NCBI GenBank assembly: GCA_000146465.1
Contig: CP001946.1
Strand: one strand, 5' to 3'
DNA: 64,000 nucleotides
The first letter of the stretch is position 1; the number at the start of each line of letters is the position of its first letter. This document shows, piece after piece, positions 19,112-54,524 of the stretch. The notes below the pieces were generated by a model. That model was not told the DNA's origin. It searched no databases and was given only the letters and a program-made list of their open reading frames with translations. Position numbers and translations under genes: made by a program.

Positions 19112-19227
19112 GAGGTTCTGAGGGAGTGTTTTATAGAATAAAAGTCTTCTGTAGTCTTTTGAGTTTGTCCTTGGAAAAGGCAAAGGAGGGGAGTTTGGCC
19201 GTATGAGATTGGAAGGGGCTGAGGCCA

Positions 19228-19300
19228 GCCGCCATAGCTAAGTGGTTATAGCGCCAGTTTAGTAAACTGGAGGCCCCGAGTTCGAATCTCGGTGGTGGCT
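19228..19300 (+). tRNA. tRNA-Thr (anticodon AGT)
   Basis: Cloverleaf by hand: acceptor GCCGCCA/TGGTGGC, D-arm GCTA-AGTGGTTA-TAGC (A box), anticodon stem CCAGT/ACTGG with loop TTAGTAA, T-arm CCGAG-TTCGAAT-CTCGG (B box), discriminator T. No intron. Confidence 0.85.
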
Positions 19301-19310
19301 TTGTTTTTGT
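19301..19310 (+). terminator. Pol III T-run terminator after tRNA-Thr
   Basis: TTGTTTTTGT lies directly 3' of the tRNA. Confidence 0.5.
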
Positions 19311-47749: not shown

Positions 47750-48763
47750 ATGAGTGTCGAGCAAAAGCTTCATTTGATTACAAGAAACCTCCAGGAGGTT
47801 CTAGGACTGGAAGAACTGAAAAAAATTGTTTCTGAGAGAAATCTAAATGTTTATTGGGGAACAGCCATAACGGGAAGACCACATATAGCCTATTTAGTTC
47901 CTCTTATGAAGGTGAAAGATTTTCTAGATGCAGGATGTAATGTAAAGGTTCTTCTTGCAGACATCCATGGGTTTCTCGACAATCTCAAGGCGCCCATCGA
48001 AAAGGTTCAGGACAGATGCATATATTACGAAAAGTTGATAAAGTCCTGTTTGAAGATGTTGGGAGTAGACCTTGGAAGAATCCAGTTTATCAAGGGAAGT
48101 GAGTTTCAGAAATCTAACGAGTATACAATGGACTTGTACAAGATCTTGTCCATAACATCTGAGCACGATGCAAAAAAGGCAGGGGCACAGGTTGTCAAGC
48201 AGGTCAAAAATCCGATGGTGAGCTCTCTAATATATCCGGCTATGCAGGCTCTTGACGAAGTGCATCTATCAGTAGACGCACAGTTTGGAGGAGTCGACCA
48301 GAGGAAGATATTCACATATGCCAGGAAATACCTTCCTCTTCTCAACTACGAGAAAAGAATACATCTGATGAGTCCGATGCTCCCAGGATTGAACTCCGAG
48401 AAGATGAGTAGTTCGGACGACCTTTCAAAGATCGATCTTATGGACTCAAAAGAAACCATCTTCAAGAAGATAAAAAAGTGTTTTTGCGAGGAAGGAAACA
48501 AGGAAAATGGGTTAATGAAGATTTTCTCGCATATAATATTTCCTATCTTTCAACACAAGGGAGAGAACGTTAAGATTACGGATAAAGATGGAAGGGAAAT
48601 GGAGTTTGAAAAGTACCAGGAATTCGAAAGCGAATTTGTCAGCAAATCCATCCATCCCGGAGATCTCAAGAGCAACGCAGCAAGGCTCATTGATGGCATC
48701 ATAAGACCTATCCGAGAGGAGATGGAAGAAGATTTGTCTATGGTCAGGCGAGCTTACAATTAA
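47750..48763 (+). CDS. TYS1: tyrosyl-tRNA synthetase (cytoplasmic)
   Basis: 'YWGTAITGRPHIAYLVPLMKVKDFLDAGCNVKVLLADIHGFLDNLKAP' (HIGH region) and 'KMSSS' (KMSKS). Confidence 0.9.
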   Translation: MSVEQKLHLITRNLQEVLGLEELKKIVSERNLNVYWGTAITGRPHIAYLVPLMKVKDFLDAGCNVKVLLADIHGFLDNLKAPIEKVQDRCIYYEKLIKSCLKMLGVDLGRIQFIKGSEFQKSNEYTMDLYKILSITSEHDAKKAGAQVVKQVKNPMVSSLIYPAMQALDEVHLSVDAQFGGVDQRKIFTYARKYLPLLNYEKRIHLMSPMLPGLNSEKMSSSDDLSKIDLMDSKETIFKKIKKCFCEEGNKENGLMKIFSHIIFPIFQHKGENVKITDKDGREMEFEKYQEFESEFVSKSIHPGDLKSNAARLIDGIIRPIREEMEEDLSMVRRAYN

Positions 48764-48818
48764 AGACAGGGCTGATGTTTTACTTGCTTGTTAAAAACAA
48801 ATCTCACATTACCCTGTG

Positions 48819-49940
48819 ATGGAAATACGCCTCTGGCCAAACCAGGAGTTCCGAATCGAGGTTAGTGAAACACAAAAGCTGAAAGTGATGGTTGTGTCTG
48901 GCTTAGCAGAAATCAAGGGCCAGGAGCTTCTCAATGAAAAGTGGTACGCATTCAAGGACATAAAGACATTTATATTCACGTTTTCTGGATGCAAGCTCAA
49001 AGTGGAGGGAGCATGTGATCTACAATATGTGTCTGGCACGACGAATGTCCCTTCGATATTTGGGATCGTCAATTTTTTCTCGAAGAATGGGTTTGACTAT
49101 AGCAAGCTTAGGACATTCATGGTGGTAGGAAATGGAAGATCAACCCTGTGCTTCACACTGATCAACTTCTTTGTGCGAATGGGAAAGAAGGTACTATTCA
49201 CAGAGATAGATCCATCGAGGGGAAACATATTTCCTGGAGCGCTAAGCACCATGCACGTAGACACCTTAATCGACTGTATTGAAGGTCTCCGTCTGAAGAA
49301 CCCGTTATCCTTCTTCTACGGATCCACAGAGATAACAAACATGGAGTTGTATGATCTCCAAACAACGAAGCTCCAGGAGGCTATAAAATCCAAAAACATC
49401 GATGATCTTCATCTGATACTTTGTCCGGAGGGTGCATCTGCGTTTTATAACACGTTAATAAAGAGATTTGAGGTCGATAGAGTTATTGTTGTAGGGAATG
49501 AAAGGTTATACCACACTCTGGACGTGATAGTGGAAAAGTTGATGATCAGTAGAAGCGGTTTTGTTGAAGAAAAGGAAATAGGAAAGAGCATATCCAGATA
49601 CTTCAAAGGGGTGAATAATGAATATACACCATTTACATTCAATGTGAAATACAAGTGGAGGGTTGTGAGAATAGGAGAAATGTATGTTGCACCTGCTAGT
49701 GCTTTGCCACTGGGGAGTGCAAGGAAAGTAGGGTGTGTGGAGGCCTCTGAAGTGGAGATTTCGGAGAATTCTGTCTTAGGGATTTCAGAAGCTAGAGAGA
49801 TAGAAGATGTTGCAGGATCTCCGGTTCTTGGATATGTGGTTGTGATTGATACAGGGACATTCAAAATATTATGTACCCAGCCAAGGCTTCCTAAGTATGT
49901 TTTTTTGATCCAGGGAGACCTCAAGCATATCGAGTACTAG
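48819..49940 (+). CDS. CLP1: mRNA cleavage/polyadenylation factor Clp1 with a degenerate P-loop
   Basis: N-domain 'EFRIEVSETQKLKVMVVSGLAEIKGQELLNEKWYAF...TFSGCKLKVEG' follows the Clp1 pattern. The Walker A position reads 'MVVGNGRSTLC' with no GK[ST]. 'EIDPSRGNIFPGALS' matches Clp1 'ELDVGQGSVSIPG'. The track start is GTG; the ATG is the next codon ('taCCCtgtgATG'). Confidence 0.7.
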   Translation: MEIRLWPNQEFRIEVSETQKLKVMVVSGLAEIKGQELLNEKWYAFKDIKTFIFTFSGCKLKVEGACDLQYVSGTTNVPSIFGIVNFFSKNGFDYSKLRTFMVVGNGRSTLCFTLINFFVRMGKKVLFTEIDPSRGNIFPGALSTMHVDTLIDCIEGLRLKNPLSFFYGSTEITNMELYDLQTTKLQEAIKSKNIDDLHLILCPEGASAFYNTLIKRFEVDRVIVVGNERLYHTLDVIVEKLMISRSGFVEEKEIGKSISRYFKGVNNEYTPFTFNVKYKWRVVRIGEMYVAPASALPLGSARKVGCVEASEVEISENSVLGISEAREIEDVAGSPVLGYVVVIDTGTFKILCTQPRLPKYVFLIQGDLKHIEY

Positions 49941-50000
49941 CTTTCTTAATAAAACATTACAGTTCTCCGACTTTATCCAAACGGAAATTTTGTAAATTCG

Positions 50001-51533
50001 ATGATCCCTTGGATGAACAGAAAGAATCCAGTAAGAGATGCAGGCTCTATTCTCAGAGATAAATACATTACCTCTCATCTGAACGAGAGTTTGAAGATTG
50101 ATCATGAATATCCTCCTCTCCAGAAGGTGGGAGGGATAAAATATCTACTACCAAAGATAACAGAGCTTGTATACAACCCACTGTTTGCTAGGGCGAAGTA
50201 TGACGAGATTGGGATCCATCCGCCCAGTACTCTCCTGCTGCATGGTGTTTCTGGGGTTGGGAAGACGTTTCTTGTAAACTGCATAAGCCAGGAGTACAAG
50301 CTTCCGATTGTCAAGGCGTGTGTAGACTCCGATAAGGAGCTTCGTGAGTCATTCAGGAAGTCATCCTTACTCGAGAAGTCGATTGTGCTCATTGAAGACA
50401 TCGACACTTTAGGAGAGGATGATAAGAAGGTGATATCCCAGCTTTCCGAGTATCTTGAGAACTACAAAGGAAAGTCGATTGTGATTGCTACTGCTCGAAA
50501 CCCCGCATTTATTCATGAAAGTCTCAACAAGTTTGAAAATTCGCTACTGGTGAAAATACCAACGACATCGGAGAGGAGAGAGATCTTGGCCAGTATTACC
50601 GACAGAATGAAATGCCAGGATATTGACTGGCTGGAACTTGCAAAACTTATGCCAGGATTTGTTGGAAGAGACTTGAAGAGAGCCCTTAAGATTGCTTCTA
50701 CAAAAGCCGTGACTGACGGATCACATGTTATCCGGATGGTGGACTTTGAGATGGCGCTAAAGGAGATAAGGTGGAAGGGCACAGACATCACCTTTGATAG
50801 TATTGGATCTCTTGAGGAAGTCAAAGACGAGCTCAACATGAGCATCATCTTTCCGTCCCGATTTCCAGAGAAATTCCACAAGCTTGGGATCACAAGGCCT
50901 TCTGGAATACTTCTTTATGGACCTCCTGGATGTGGAAAAACATTACTTGTTCGGGCTGTGTCGAACATGAGCCATTGCAACTTCTTGAGCATCAAAGGCC
51001 CAGAGCTCATAAGTAAATATGTTGGGGATTCAGAGAAGGAGATAAGGAAGCTGTTTGATAAAGCTAAGCAGCTACAGCCATGCGTGTTGTTTTTTGATGA
51101 GATAGATTCCCTTTGTGGAGAGAGGAATGGAAACGAATTCACCAGTCGCATAGTCAATCAGATATTGACGCTCTTGGACGGGCTTGATGATAGAGGAGAT
51201 GTGTATGTAATTGGAGCCACCAACAGAATCGAGAGCATTGATAAGGCCATATTACGTCCTGGAAGATTCGACAAGATTCTTAAAGTCCCCCTACCATCTA
51301 GAGAAGGATGCGTGGATATATTTAGAAAGTGCACCAAGGGAATACCCATCGAGCCCTTTGATTTTGAAGGATTAGATTTGGAAGGGTTTAGTGGAGCAGA
51401 AATAGCAGGTTTAATTAGAGATGCAGCAATGTTATGCCTGAAACGCAACTTCAATGCAGATTCTTTTTTAATATCCAAAGTGGACATCTTGGAAGCGTTG
51501 AAGGCCGCAAGAGTTACCAAGGACTTCCGGTAG
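50001..51533 (+). CDS. two-ring AAA+ ATPase (Afg2/Drg1-Cdc48 subfamily) lacking an N-domain
   Basis: D1 'LLHGVSGVGKTFL...VLIEDID'. D2 'ILLYGPPGCGKTLL...GPELISKYVGDSEKEIRKLFDKAKQLQPCVLFFDEIDSL' and arginine fingers 'ATNRIESIDKAILRPGRFD'. Confidence 0.7.
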   Translation: MIPWMNRKNPVRDAGSILRDKYITSHLNESLKIDHEYPPLQKVGGIKYLLPKITELVYNPLFARAKYDEIGIHPPSTLLLHGVSGVGKTFLVNCISQEYKLPIVKACVDSDKELRESFRKSSLLEKSIVLIEDIDTLGEDDKKVISQLSEYLENYKGKSIVIATARNPAFIHESLNKFENSLLVKIPTTSERREILASITDRMKCQDIDWLELAKLMPGFVGRDLKRALKIASTKAVTDGSHVIRMVDFEMALKEIRWKGTDITFDSIGSLEEVKDELNMSIIFPSRFPEKFHKLGITRPSGILLYGPPGCGKTLLVRAVSNMSHCNFLSIKGPELISKYVGDSEKEIRKLFDKAKQLQPCVLFFDEIDSLCGERNGNEFTSRIVNQILTLLDGLDDRGDVYVIGATNRIESIDKAILRPGRFDKILKVPLPSREGCVDIFRKCTKGIPIEPFDFEGLDLEGFSGAEIAGLIRDAAMLCLKRNFNADSFLISKVDILEALKAARVTKDFR

Positions 51534-51614
51534 GCACTTTAAGCTGATGCCTTCTAAGTTCTCCAAAACCCAATGCAGATAGAGCTACCTAAGATGGAAA
51601 TGGCTCGTTTATTT

Positions 51615-54524
51615 TTAATAAAAGGTATTGAGCCTATCCAACGCCATAATTATTTTGTTTCTATCATATTTTCCAGCTTCAATAAAGTCTTCCAAATCTG
51701 CGCTGTTCATGTTGTTTATCACATCGACGTTTATGATTCTGGTTGTCTTTTCCTGGAAAAATGGTGCCAGTCTACCAGCATGTCTTTCCAGTTCCGTAAG
51801 GAGCCCAAGTTCCTCGTTACCCAGAGTAAGGCTCCCTAATATTCCAATCCCTCCGTTTCTTGTTGTGAAATAGACAGAGTCAGACCGGGGTAATGACAGA
51901 GACCCTGGACACATGCTTGTTATTCTGTCTCCAATAGAAAGCGTCTCCATATTATAATTTCTGTCCAACATCAGAACCTTCCCATCTGTGGTTGTAAGAA
52001 TAAGACTTTCTAGGGCGAAAACCATGGATTCTATCTGTTCTTTACCATTTGAAAGGAAATCTAGGGATAGATGGTTGGTTTCCTCGTTAAATGTAAAGAC
52101 CCCAAAAGATCTGTAGATACATGAACAGGCAATCTTGCTTCCATGCATTGCTATTCTATACGGTATAAAACCTATTTTCATTACACACAGCTCTACAAGG
52201 ATTCGTGCTTGTCTTTTGTATACATATACATTGTGGTTTCTATGTGTTGCCAAGTAATCCCCGTCGGAATCCAATGCATGCACAACACCCTCCCCTGTGC
52301 TTTCGTAGACAAGCTTGATACAATTCCCTCTTGTAGAAAACATAGCAAGCCTTGAAAAGCTGCCCTCTCTCGAAAGGTTACTTACAACAACAAAGTAATG
52401 TCTTGACAGAAACCTTCCATCCATTACTATCTCATCTTGGAGGAAGAGATTGTGTACATGCCTTTTCACTTTCAAAGAGAGATAGGAATTGATTATCGGA
52501 TCATTGTCGATGTTGAGGATTGGGCTTACGAGCCCTGTAACTTCCTTTTCATCATTCATGGCAGAGAACTTCAGCACATATCCATTCCTCGGATCCGTTT
52601 CTTGTAGCTTATCTTCAATAGAAATCTTAATTTTGGGAATGGATCCAAGATGGCATCTGTAAATGGACTTCCCTACAGAAACATACAGATGATCGGCAAC
52701 TAAGGCATAAGATATGCCTTCTAGGGAGCATTTATAGCACGAAAAGTCCTGGAGGTCTATAAATATGCTGGATACCCCAATTCCCATTATGTGCCTTCCA
52801 ACGGGAATCATGGTTTCAATCATTGTATCAGAAAAGAATGAAGGCTTAAGAAATAGAAGCTCCCATTTGTTCTCTTCTTCTGTCTCTTTTAATATTGATA
52901 AGATGCTTCTGGAACTTGTTTCGGGCTCTTGCCCAAAAGTAACTTCATATCCCACCCCATGCATGTCTCCAAAAAAGAGTCTCCCGCCTGCAATGCATAC
53001 CGATTTCAAGATTTCATGTTTTCTTCTATGAACCACTTGGAGGTGTTTGTTCATAATAATAAACTCGTCGTAGTATGTTGATATAAACAGGTAGCTATGG
53101 AGATAGAGAAGGCTAACTTCGTAAGGGCATTCTACACACTCAATGCATTCCATTGTCTCAAGGCATATTGCCTTAAGATTCCTGTCTCCAGTAAACACAA
53201 TACATAAGCCTTGATGGTAGGAAGAGAGTACTATGTCCTTTATCTCCAAACTTGAAATATCCCTTCCTTTCAGACGATACATGTGGTTTTTTGTATTGAA
53301 ATAGCAGTAGCCATCTATATGTATGTTAAGGATTTCTCCAAAGTCCTGTTCTTCACTCATACCTTCTCTTAATACTTTCCCTTGGTTTGGATGTGACACA
53401 ATCAAGACTCCATCTGCTATCCCGAATCTTCGGATAACTCCAGAAAGATTATATCTTGGTTCTACCGAAAGATCAACTGAATATGTGATCTTCTTAATCG
53501 AATTTCTTGAAATATATCTAAATGAAGTCCCAAGGTACGATAGAGACATTGGACAGGCACCACCTTCAAATGTTTTCAGAACCCTTAACTCTTTTCCTAT
53601 TTCGAGATGGTAAGAATTTCCACAAGGTGATCCTCCATAGTACAGCTTGTCTTCAAGATGAAGCAGAACACTAAACCAGGACCCAAGGTTTCCCAAAACC
53701 TCGGTTTTTAGAGATAAACCTTTGTAAGATGCAATTTCATTTTCACAGGTTTTGTTACTAGTTGGAATATTTCCTTCCAGGGATATGCGTATAATCTCTC
53801 CGTCCTCCATTGAGAGCAAAATACTTCCGTCTGCCGCCAGAGTGTTCTTGATCCCGGGATTTGCAAATTCGCTCTCAAGTACAAACTTGCCTCTCACATA
53901 GTAATATAACTTCCCTTCGCCTATAAGGAGCAACCCATCCCCTATGGCCCTTGCAGATACAAGCCCCTTTCTAAGGAGCATCTTTTCTTTTAGAATCATT
54001 TTAGGTTTGGAAGGCGCCATTTGATATCTCGAATAAAAGACGTCTCCAGAAATGTCTTCTAGCAAAAACCCGACATCACCCTTATTGGAAAATCCGTCAA
54101 GAATCTTATAGTATCCAAAGTCATTTACATCATCTCCAAAAACAAGTCCTTCGTGGCCCATACTTGCAACAGTAACTGTATCATTTTCCGCAATAAATAT
54201 AAAATTCTTCGAAGTTCGGATGCATTTGATATAGGATAGAGGAGCTGGCATCCTTCCGCACACAACTGGCTTGTCTCTACCCATAATGGCATAATCTCCC
54301 CTATTGGAAACCAACAGAAATCTTTTTGAACTCCTAAATACCACTGGCACAATAAGTGTTACATATCCATTGGGATATATCACATCCACAGGCCTCAGGT
54401 CCAGATTGTATATCTCGACTATCATTCCTCTAGTTACCGCGATACACGGTTCCCTCTCATATTCAATCCTTGCTCCGGAAACCGCAGAGTCAGGGTCGTT
54501 GATGGTTCTCATTGCATAGTGCAT
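51615..54524 (-). CDS. SF3b130/CPSF160/DDB1-family triple-propeller protein (closest to SF3b3/Rse1 by N-terminus)
   Basis: N-terminus 'AVSGARIEYEREPCIAVTRGMIVEIYNLDLRP' against SF3b3 'GISFAIHGNFSG..QEIVVSRGKILELLRPD'. Repeated propeller blades. C-terminal 'DVINNMNSADLEDFIE...RLNTFY' resembles the CPSF_A tail. Confidence 0.55.
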   Translation of the reverse strand: MHYAMRTINDPDSAVSGARIEYEREPCIAVTRGMIVEIYNLDLRPVDVIYPNGYVTLIVPVVFRSSKRFLLVSNRGDYAIMGRDKPVVCGRMPAPLSYIKCIRTSKNFIFIAENDTVTVASMGHEGLVFGDDVNDFGYYKILDGFSNKGDVGFLLEDISGDVFYSRYQMAPSKPKMILKEKMLLRKGLVSARAIGDGLLLIGEGKLYYYVRGKFVLESEFANPGIKNTLAADGSILLSMEDGEIIRISLEGNIPTSNKTCENEIASYKGLSLKTEVLGNLGSWFSVLLHLEDKLYYGGSPCGNSYHLEIGKELRVLKTFEGGACPMSLSYLGTSFRYISRNSIKKITYSVDLSVEPRYNLSGVIRRFGIADGVLIVSHPNQGKVLREGMSEEQDFGEILNIHIDGYCYFNTKNHMYRLKGRDISSLEIKDIVLSSYHQGLCIVFTGDRNLKAICLETMECIECVECPYEVSLLYLHSYLFISTYYDEFIIMNKHLQVVHRRKHEILKSVCIAGGRLFFGDMHGVGYEVTFGQEPETSSRSILSILKETEEENKWELLFLKPSFFSDTMIETMIPVGRHIMGIGVSSIFIDLQDFSCYKCSLEGISYALVADHLYVSVGKSIYRCHLGSIPKIKISIEDKLQETDPRNGYVLKFSAMNDEKEVTGLVSPILNIDNDPIINSYLSLKVKRHVHNLFLQDEIVMDGRFLSRHYFVVVSNLSREGSFSRLAMFSTRGNCIKLVYESTGEGVVHALDSDGDYLATHRNHNVYVYKRQARILVELCVMKIGFIPYRIAMHGSKIACSCIYRSFGVFTFNEETNHLSLDFLSNGKEQIESMVFALESLILTTTDGKVLMLDRNYNMETLSIGDRITSMCPGSLSLPRSDSVYFTTRNGGIGILGSLTLGNEELGLLTELERHAGRLAPFFQEKTTRIINVDVINNMNSADLEDFIEAGKYDRNKIIMALDRLNTFY

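Follow-up and report, generated by a model that had tools for sequence, protein, structure and literature searches.

Clp1 of Encephalitozoon intestinalis has lost the P-loop core, a change shared by all sampled Microsporidia and by Rozella and pointing to a probable ATP-independent scaffold

Within a 64,000-nucleotide stretch of contig CP001946.1 (assembly GCA_000146465.1; hereafter the window, with position 1 as its first nucleotide) from the microsporidian Encephalitozoon intestinalis ATCC 50506, we analyzed the open reading frame (ORF) at 48819..49940, which encodes Clp1. This protein is a subunit of the machinery that cleaves and polyadenylates pre-mRNA 3′ ends, belonging to cleavage factor IA (CF IA) in yeast and to cleavage factor IIm (CF IIm) in mammals. 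The family has long been puzzling: its animal and archaeal members are RNA kinases, and the yeast protein binds ATP without being an enzyme. We find that the E. intestinalis protein, together with its relatives in a large clade, lacks the core of the P-loop (Walker A motif). Our preferred reading, to which we assign a probability of roughly 0.7 as a whole package that includes the loss of ATP binding and an internal Arg-Asp pair, is that these proteins constitute an ancient, clade-wide pseudokinase acting as an ATP-independent scaffold in 3′-end processing. Taken by itself, the statement that E. intestinalis Clp1 is not an RNA kinase is highly probable.

The lesion lies in residues 101-114 (MVVGNGRSTLCFTL, nucleotides 49119-49160). 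Here the P-loop remnant is three residues shorter than GxxxxGK[ST] and the lysine has become arginine, such that GPTDVGKST becomes G---NGRST. An initial annotation, made from the DNA letters only, had described the canonical motif as destroyed and the Walker A lysine as missing, and the alignments bear this out. Its account of the event, a two-residue deletion removing the GK dipeptide, has to be corrected to a gap of three residues between the glycines plus a lysine-to-arginine substitution. Specifically, phmmer pairs MVVGN---GRSTLC with human MVVGPTDVGKSTVC and C. elegans LLVGPTDVGKTTVS, and the same 3-residue gap between the two glycines is obtained with MAFFT (210 homologs) and with hhalign, which compared the profile of a microsporidian alignment to that of canonical fungal, plant, and animal sequences. 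All three methods line up G106-R107-S108-T109 with G-K-S/T-T, the second glycine being retained and Arg107 lying under the lysine. The codons (GGA AAT GGA AGA TCA ACC) leave the frame undisturbed, and the Ser/Thr that normally ligates Mg2+ is still present in the short loop.

The initial annotation had also considered that an intact motif might lie a few residues away. No shifted GxxxxGK[ST] was found near the strand-helix junction, neither in E. intestinalis Clp1 nor in 111 short-loop relatives. A P-loop requires about five residues to wrap the β-phosphate. To our knowledge, a two-residue turn cannot build the anion hole that surrounds this phosphate in P-loop nucleoside triphosphatases (NTPases), and we know of no described P-loop NTPase that works with GxGK/R[ST].

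The damage extends to the rest of the active site. Clp1 kinases share four motifs, namely Walker A GxxxxGK[S/T], Walker B [D/E]hhQ, the clasp [T/S/L]xGW, and the lid RxxxxR (PMC6777427). When these motifs were placed on E. intestinalis Clp1 via its phmmer alignment to human CLP1, three of the four (Walker A, clasp, and lid) proved to be lost, and only half of Walker B is preserved. Its aspartate, Asp131, lies in the stretch of residues 129-143 (EIDPSRGNIFPGALS), where the Walker B glutamine is replaced at position 134; members of the short-loop clade have K, N, S, T, or R at this position, and 56 of 87 canonical proteins have Q. The RNA-binding clasp tryptophan (human W233) is absent from E. 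intestinalis Clp1, and the xxGW pattern was matched in none of 72 microsporidian sequences. Similarly, the human lid arginines R288 and R293 both land in alignment gaps. A side observation concerns the Walker B column in other lineages: the named fungi (P0228-P0281) mostly have D-x-x-E there, with Batrachochytrium keeping the Q, and animals, plants, and protists have D-x-G-Q. Judging from this column, D-x-x-E may mark the point at which kinase activity disappeared within Fungi, independently of the P-loop deletion.

The predicted structure shows what the shortened loop would look like. An AlphaFold2 (AF2) model built from a 54-sequence alignment reached a mean predicted local distance difference test (pLDDT) score of 89.5 and a predicted template modeling (pTM) score of 0.88. 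In this model, strand 99-104 runs into helix 107-120 with only N105 and G106 between them. When the canonical Clp1 of Batrachochytrium was modeled by the same procedure as a control (pLDDT 88.7), the strand fell at 117-122 and the helix began at 128, which gives five loop residues. The lid helix likewise counts 10 residues (254-263) in E. intestinalis as against 17 in the control. The inference of lost nucleotide binding and a structural role, drawn in the initial annotation, gains strength from the absence of the clasp tryptophan and of both lid arginines and from a modeled P-loop of two residues rather than five. Based on alignment and modeling, loss of canonical ATP binding in E. intestinalis Clp1 is the most likely outcome.

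We then asked how widely the short loop occurs, a check that the initial annotation had itself proposed. All microsporidian homologs recovered carry G-x-[G/S]-[R/K]-x-[S/T], including those from Encephalitozoon, Ordospora, Nosema, Vairimorpha, Pancytospora, Enteropsectra, Nucleospora, Hepatospora, and Antonospora, along with many unnamed sequences. An exhaustive HMMER scan of 1.84 billion representatives added further examples, about 25 of them longer (400-450 residues). Among the added proteins are those of Rozella allomycis (GSGRNT), the metchnikovellid Amphiamblys sp. (GKGKTV), and Nematocida sp. (GEGRGT). A profile search that started from the non-microsporidian short-loop proteins brought in named Clp1 proteins of Mortierellomycota, Mucoromycota, Glomeromycota, Basidiobolus, Conidiobolus, Dimargaris, Coemansia, Batrachochytrium and other chytrids, plants, and animals. 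A canonical GxxxxGK[ST] is present in every one of them, as in all named Zoopagomycota. The change is thus lineage-wide: it is present in all sampled microsporidia as well as in Amphiamblys, Nematocida, and Rozella allomycis, and in no named true fungus.

Of the 210 aligned sequences, 111 have the short loop and 89 the canonical one. In a neighbor-joining (NJ) tree computed after the P-loop columns had been dropped, a single split gathers 98 of the 99 full-length short-loop proteins on a side that is free of canonical proteins. The lone exception is P0210 (447 residues, GPGKST), which sits within the canonical group and keeps both the lysine and the Walker B glutamine; its loop, shorter by three residues, stems either from a separate deletion, as its place in the tree suggests, or from a faulty gene model. 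On these sequences, the simplest reading would be a single deletion on the stem of Rozellomycota plus Microsporidia, once these had parted from the other fungi. In rozellid-like proteins the loop residues and the clasp tryptophan are missing, but full length is retained and the lid ′FRR′ is kept in 17 of 23 cases; in core microsporidia the lid is shortened too, and protein length is down to about 372 residues. From this distribution the decay looks stepwise, loop and clasp first, with lid and length following later in core microsporidia. For the 440- to 450-residue short-loop proteins with Asn-rich inserts (P0053-P0059) we had considered an amoebozoan origin, which was dropped because the tree puts them with Rozella allomycis. 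Rozella itself has two entries, the 403-residue Clp1 RKP21191.1 and EPZ31615.1 (P0219), a 1430-residue model that fuses Clp1 to a ′14-3-3 domain′ protein and is probably a merged gene prediction.

Despite its missing motifs, the gene is under strong purifying selection. Comparison with the ortholog on an Encephalitozoon-like contig (L001) gave a ratio of nonsynonymous to synonymous substitution rates (dN/dS) of 0.036, with dN at 0.080 and dS at 2.24, the latter being saturated such that the ratio holds as an order of magnitude only; against Ordospora, dN is 0.166. Within the short-loop clade, conservation is 100% for G104, 92% for G106, 84% for R107, 83% for T109, and 89% for D131, compared to a mean top-residue frequency of 0.47, and these five residues rank within the top ∼10% of conserved positions. 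Position 107 is R or K in 98 of 102 short-loop sequences. This high conservation of the P-loop remnant argues against simple decay. In addition, positions 107 (49137-49139) and 131 (49209-49211) co-vary across the short-loop clade, with 84 cases of R+D, 6 of K+D, and 6 of K+N, and two of the three sequences without a positive charge at 107 also lack Asp131. On sequence grounds, this pattern hints at a direct contact between the two side chains.

These data can be arranged into a plausible course of events. In the ancestor shared by Rozellomycota and Microsporidia, three P-loop residues would have been deleted and the Walker A lysine exchanged for arginine, turning the phosphate-wrapping loop into a tight two-residue β-α turn. 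The clasp tryptophan would have been lost at about the same stage, and the ATP-sensing lid arginines plus part of the lid helix later, within core microsporidia. In the former ATP-Mg2+ site, Arg107, Thr109, and Asp131 probably satisfy one another, and the Arg-Asp pair would stabilize the domain without a cofactor. Purifying selection would have kept the resulting Clp1 as an ATP-independent scaffold that bridges 3′-end processing factors.

Work on the yeast protein provides the functional background for such a scaffold. Yeast Clp1 binds ATP and is not a kinase, and neither K136A T137A nor D161A caused an apparent growth defect or disturbed 3′-end processing in vitro, even though these mutants lost Pcf11 binding in pull-downs and bound the endonuclease Ysh1 better (PMC3245249). 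The Clp1-Pcf11 contact is modulated by the ATP site, and Clp1 also bridges to CPF, the factor for cleavage and polyadenylation (PMC3273803, PMC3273802). In E. cuniculi, 3′-end complexes have been reported as present and Pcf11 as absent (PMC2803860). Microsporidia have also been reported to possess the RtcB ligase (PMC13247085), which joins 5′-OH ends, and a 5′-kinase is therefore not needed for this reaction.

Several points weigh against the scaffold reading. Strong conservation of the loop remnant and of the Walker B aspartate fits a surviving ligand site equally well, and the Mg2+-ligating Ser/Thr has been retained. The co-variation of positions 107 and 131 stems largely from one subclade and hence from few independent events, the NJ tree was built simply from distances on a hit list biased toward the query, and the absence of Pcf11 from E. 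cuniculi goes back to an in silico survey from 2009 that covered a single species (PMC2803860).

An alternative that takes up the first of these points is that the shortened loop is a working, noncanonical phosphate or nucleotide site which, together with Asp131, binds ATP, another nucleotide, or an RNA 5′-phosphate, the protein being ligand regulated or a residual enzyme. We regard this as unlikely. The G-x-G-R-[ST]-T sequence at the strand-to-helix turn does resemble a Rossmann-type GxGxx[G/A] turn, and the conservation of G104, G106, R107, T109, and D131, the nearly constant positive charge at 107, the retained Ser/Thr and Walker B aspartate, and a lid ′FRR′ still kept in rozellid-like and metchnikovellid-like members would all suit a ligand site. 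Yet only two loop residues remain as against about five in a P-loop, the Walker B glutamine is replaced, no microsporidian has the clasp tryptophan, and core microsporidia have no lid arginines. Moreover, an intact loop does not make the yeast protein a kinase (PMC3245249). A bolder variant, which we hold to be just as doubtful, would see in the turn plus Asp131 no scar but a new site derived from the P-loop, either a self-contained Arg-Asp ′internal cofactor′ that has replaced the structural ATP-Mg2+ of fungal Clp1 in these ATP-scavenging parasites or a short, Rossmann-like glycine turn with a phosphate ligand (for instance a nucleotide or an RNA 5′-phosphate) bound in a non-P-loop mode. If the phosphate-binding version were true, a lineage reportedly without Pcf11 would still have a ligand-responsive Clp1.

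A different possibility is that Clp1 has been repurposed. With Pcf11 reportedly gone, as described above for E. cuniculi, the protein could serve another complex, be it the tRNA splicing endonuclease (TSEN) as in animals or a lineage-specific partner. Its best matches are indeed to animal CLP1 and not to yeast, both by sequence (E values of 2.2e-33 versus 0.1) and by fold (template modeling [TM] scores of 0.85 versus 0.83). Two conserved elements bear on the same idea. The first is R120, the counterpart of human R140; R140H is a neurodegenerative disease mutation in human CLP1 and alters pre-tRNA splicing (PMC13247085). Because R120 is 98% conserved in a clade without kinase motifs, alignment suggests a structural or partner-binding role for it rather than a catalytic one. 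The second is the loop of residues 291-302, which is at least 90% conserved among microsporidian, fungal, plant, and animal Clp1 proteins yet has the lowest pLDDT of the model (<50), and which looks like a conserved partner-binding element. However, both are conserved in all Clp1 proteins, including those of 3′-end processing, and so give no pointer to a new role. The other 3′-end complexes are reported as present in E. cuniculi (PMC2803860), and yeast Clp1 contacts CPF subunits and Rna14 independently of Pcf11. We therefore consider repurposing rather improbable and keep to the view of a scaffold in 3′-end processing.

That the protein is Clp1 at all is secure, since three Pfam domains, sequence matches in the PDB, and fold superposition agree, confirming the first assignment by the initial annotation. 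CLP1_N (PF16573, 6.5e-23) and CLP1_P (PF16575, 3.6e-17) both score above their curated cutoffs, as does the C-terminal domain PF06807 (1.2e-7; 32.6 bits versus a cutoff of 27.9). The top phmmer matches among PDB chains are human CLP1 (8hmy_E, 2.2e-33) and C. elegans Clp1 (4ohv, 1.9e-24), the match to yeast Clp1 being marginal (E about 0.1). Foldseek superposed the model on C. elegans Clp1 with a TM score of 0.85, on yeast Clp1 from the Clp1-Pcf11 complex with 0.83, and on Grc3 with about 0.63. The microsporidian origin that the initial annotation had supposed also holds: the 373-residue product is 100% identical to the E. intestinalis ATCC 50506 ′pre-mRNA cleavage complex GTPase subunit′ at NCBI and shares 89% identity with E. 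cuniculi ECU05_1130, 86 to 89% with other Encephalitozoon proteins, and 76% with Ordospora. The gene is the single-copy Clp1 ortholog of E. intestinalis.

The remaining two explanations are refuted. Identity as the paralog Grc3/Nol9, a nucleolar pre-rRNA processing kinase, is suggested by UniRef names such as ′Polynucleotide 5′-hydroxyl-kinase GRC3′ on homologs but is hardly credible given that the Clp1-specific N- and C-terminal Pfam domains are both present and that Grc3 chains rank below all Clp1 chains (TM about 0.63, 10 to 11% identity). While microsporidian genomes shed many genes and motif loss may at first sight resemble decay, a decaying pseudogene or a sequencing or assembly error, including the frameshift restoring GK that the initial annotation had allowed for, is excluded by an intact frame without such a frameshift, an ortholog-like length, an identical protein on five contigs, orthologs in conserved synteny, the low dN/dS, and the same loop in about 100 homologs.

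The coordinates of all features are collected in Table 1. The window is compact and intron poor, with about 40 to 45% GC and gaps of only tens of bases between genes; the spacers flanking Clp1 measure only about 55 to 60 bp. A gene order of class Ib (Tyr/Trp-type) tRNA synthetase, Clp1, double-AAA ATPase, and CPSF_A-domain protein is conserved between the window (47750-54524), the Encephalitozoon-like contig, and Ordospora pajunii (L001 and L003 1-7122). Both neighbors of Clp1 listed in the table have textbook Walker A motifs, and the change in Clp1 is therefore gene specific. The 969-residue CPSF_A-domain protein, for which a PDB sequence search returned no match at E ≤ 0.01, could from its domain content be CPSF160/Cft1 (a 3′-end factor), SF3b130/Rse1, or DDB1. 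As a separate observation, a tRNA-Thr(AGT) gene at 19227-19301 (+) is the sole tRNA gene detected in the 64-kb window.

Table 1. Features of Clp1 and its neighbors in the window
Feature	Position	Strand	Remarks
Clp1 coding sequence, E. intestinalis ATCC 50506	48819..49940	+	373 codons plus TAG; ATG at 48819, TAG end 49940
N-terminal β-sandwich, residues 5-83	48831..49067	+	Pfam CLP1_N; all-β in AF2 model, pLDDT >90
Collapsed Walker A/P-loop remnant, G104-N-G-R107-S-T109	49128..49145	+	Alignments and AF2
R120	49176..49178	+	Human CLP1 R140 by phmmer to 8hmy_E; 98% conserved in short-loop clade
Walker B remnant, T128-E-I-D131-P-S-R134	49200..49220	+	D131 is human D151, kept; R134 replaces human Q154
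Clasp equivalent, L201-C-P-E204	49419..49430	+	Versus human T230-C-G-W233; phmmer (human, C. elegans) and MAFFT
Shortened lid, S244..G264 (SRSGFVEEKEIGKSISRYFKG)	49548..49610	+	phmmer and MAFFT; 7 residues shorter than human CLP1
C-terminal Clp1 domain, residues 270-371	49626..49931	+	Pfam PF06807
Loop A291 to R302 (APASALPLGSAR)	49689..49724	+	Nearly invariant; candidate partner-binding element
Upf1/Sen1-like superfamily 1 (SF1) helicase (AAA_11 + AAA_12), 563 residues	46013-47704	-	Clp1 neighbor; Walker A GPPGTGKT
Double-AAA ATPase	50001-51533	+	Clp1 neighbor; Walker A GVSGVGKT and GPPGCGKT
CPSF_A-domain protein, 969 residues	51615-54524	-	Sole Pfam match CPSF_A PF03178, 1.1e-7; two genes downstream of Clp1

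A literature search for Clp1 together with microsporidia found no paper on the P-loop change, within incomplete literature coverage, and microsporidia are not mentioned in a survey of the Clp1 family (PMC6777427). A clade-wide Clp1 without a P-loop appears to be new. Since the catalytic inertness of fungal Clp1 and the viability of P-loop mutants were already known, and since reduced parasites often have pseudoenzymes, it is an incremental finding and no surprise. The role of the Clp1 nucleotide site in 3′-end processing has so far been argued from point mutants. The short-loop clade offers a natural experiment, probably dating to the ancestor of Rozellomycota and Microsporidia, in which Clp1 was kept under strong selection after deletion of the P-loop core and, at a later stage, of the lid, and it supports the view that Clp1 has a conserved, selected function independent of nucleotide binding. 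It also supplies a stepwise series, from canonical fungi via Rozella-like proteins and metchnikovellids to core microsporidia, for how a P-loop domain may be stabilized without its ligand. At a practical level, names such as ′pre-mRNA cleavage complex GTPase subunit′ and ′polyribonucleotide 5′-hydroxyl-kinase′ probably claim activities that are absent in this clade.

Among the characterized systems, S. cerevisiae Clp1 from CF IA (PDB 2npi, 4c0b, 4oi4) shares the three-domain fold (TM 0.83) and, similar to what we propose here, has no RNA kinase activity, its P-loop being structural rather than catalytic. It differs in keeping the full GxxxxGK[ST], a bound ATP, and its partner Pcf11, whereas E. 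intestinalis Clp1 has a loop three residues shorter with an arginine, no lid arginines, and about 70 fewer residues; the full-length, ATP-holding P-loop of the yeast type is thus a feature that the E. intestinalis protein does not have. An instructive parallel is provided by yeast Clp1 G135R (PDB 4c0h, ′structural basis for ATP loss′). According to its entry title, this protein has an arginine in the P-loop, has lost ATP, and could still be crystallized folded with Pcf11; a nucleotide-free Clp1 fold is therefore viable. However, G135R is a point mutation made in the laboratory that leaves the loop at full length, and its arginine occupies a glycine rather than the lysine position, whereas the microsporidian state arose naturally, is ancient and clade-wide, and comes together with a deletion.

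Closest by sequence and fold (TM 0.85) are the active RNA 5′-hydroxyl kinases human CLP1 and C. elegans CLPF-1 (PDB 8hmy, 4ohv-4oi2). With them, E. intestinalis Clp1 has in common the Walker B aspartate, N116 and R120 (human N136 and R140), and the C-terminal ′S-x-LP-x-G′ loop. Present in the animal enzymes only are the Walker A lysine K127, the Walker B glutamine, the clasp W233, and the lid R288 and R293, all four elements being altered or deleted in E. intestinalis. The most similar condition is seen in Clp1 of Rozella allomycis (RKP21191.1/EPZ31615.1) and in rozellid-like environmental proteins, which show the same 3-residue-shorter loop with an arginine (GSGRNT), likewise have no clasp tryptophan, and fall on the same side of the tree. 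They differ in their full length of about 400 to 450 residues and in a lid ′FRR′ that is mostly kept, and would thus represent an earlier stage of the same degeneration.

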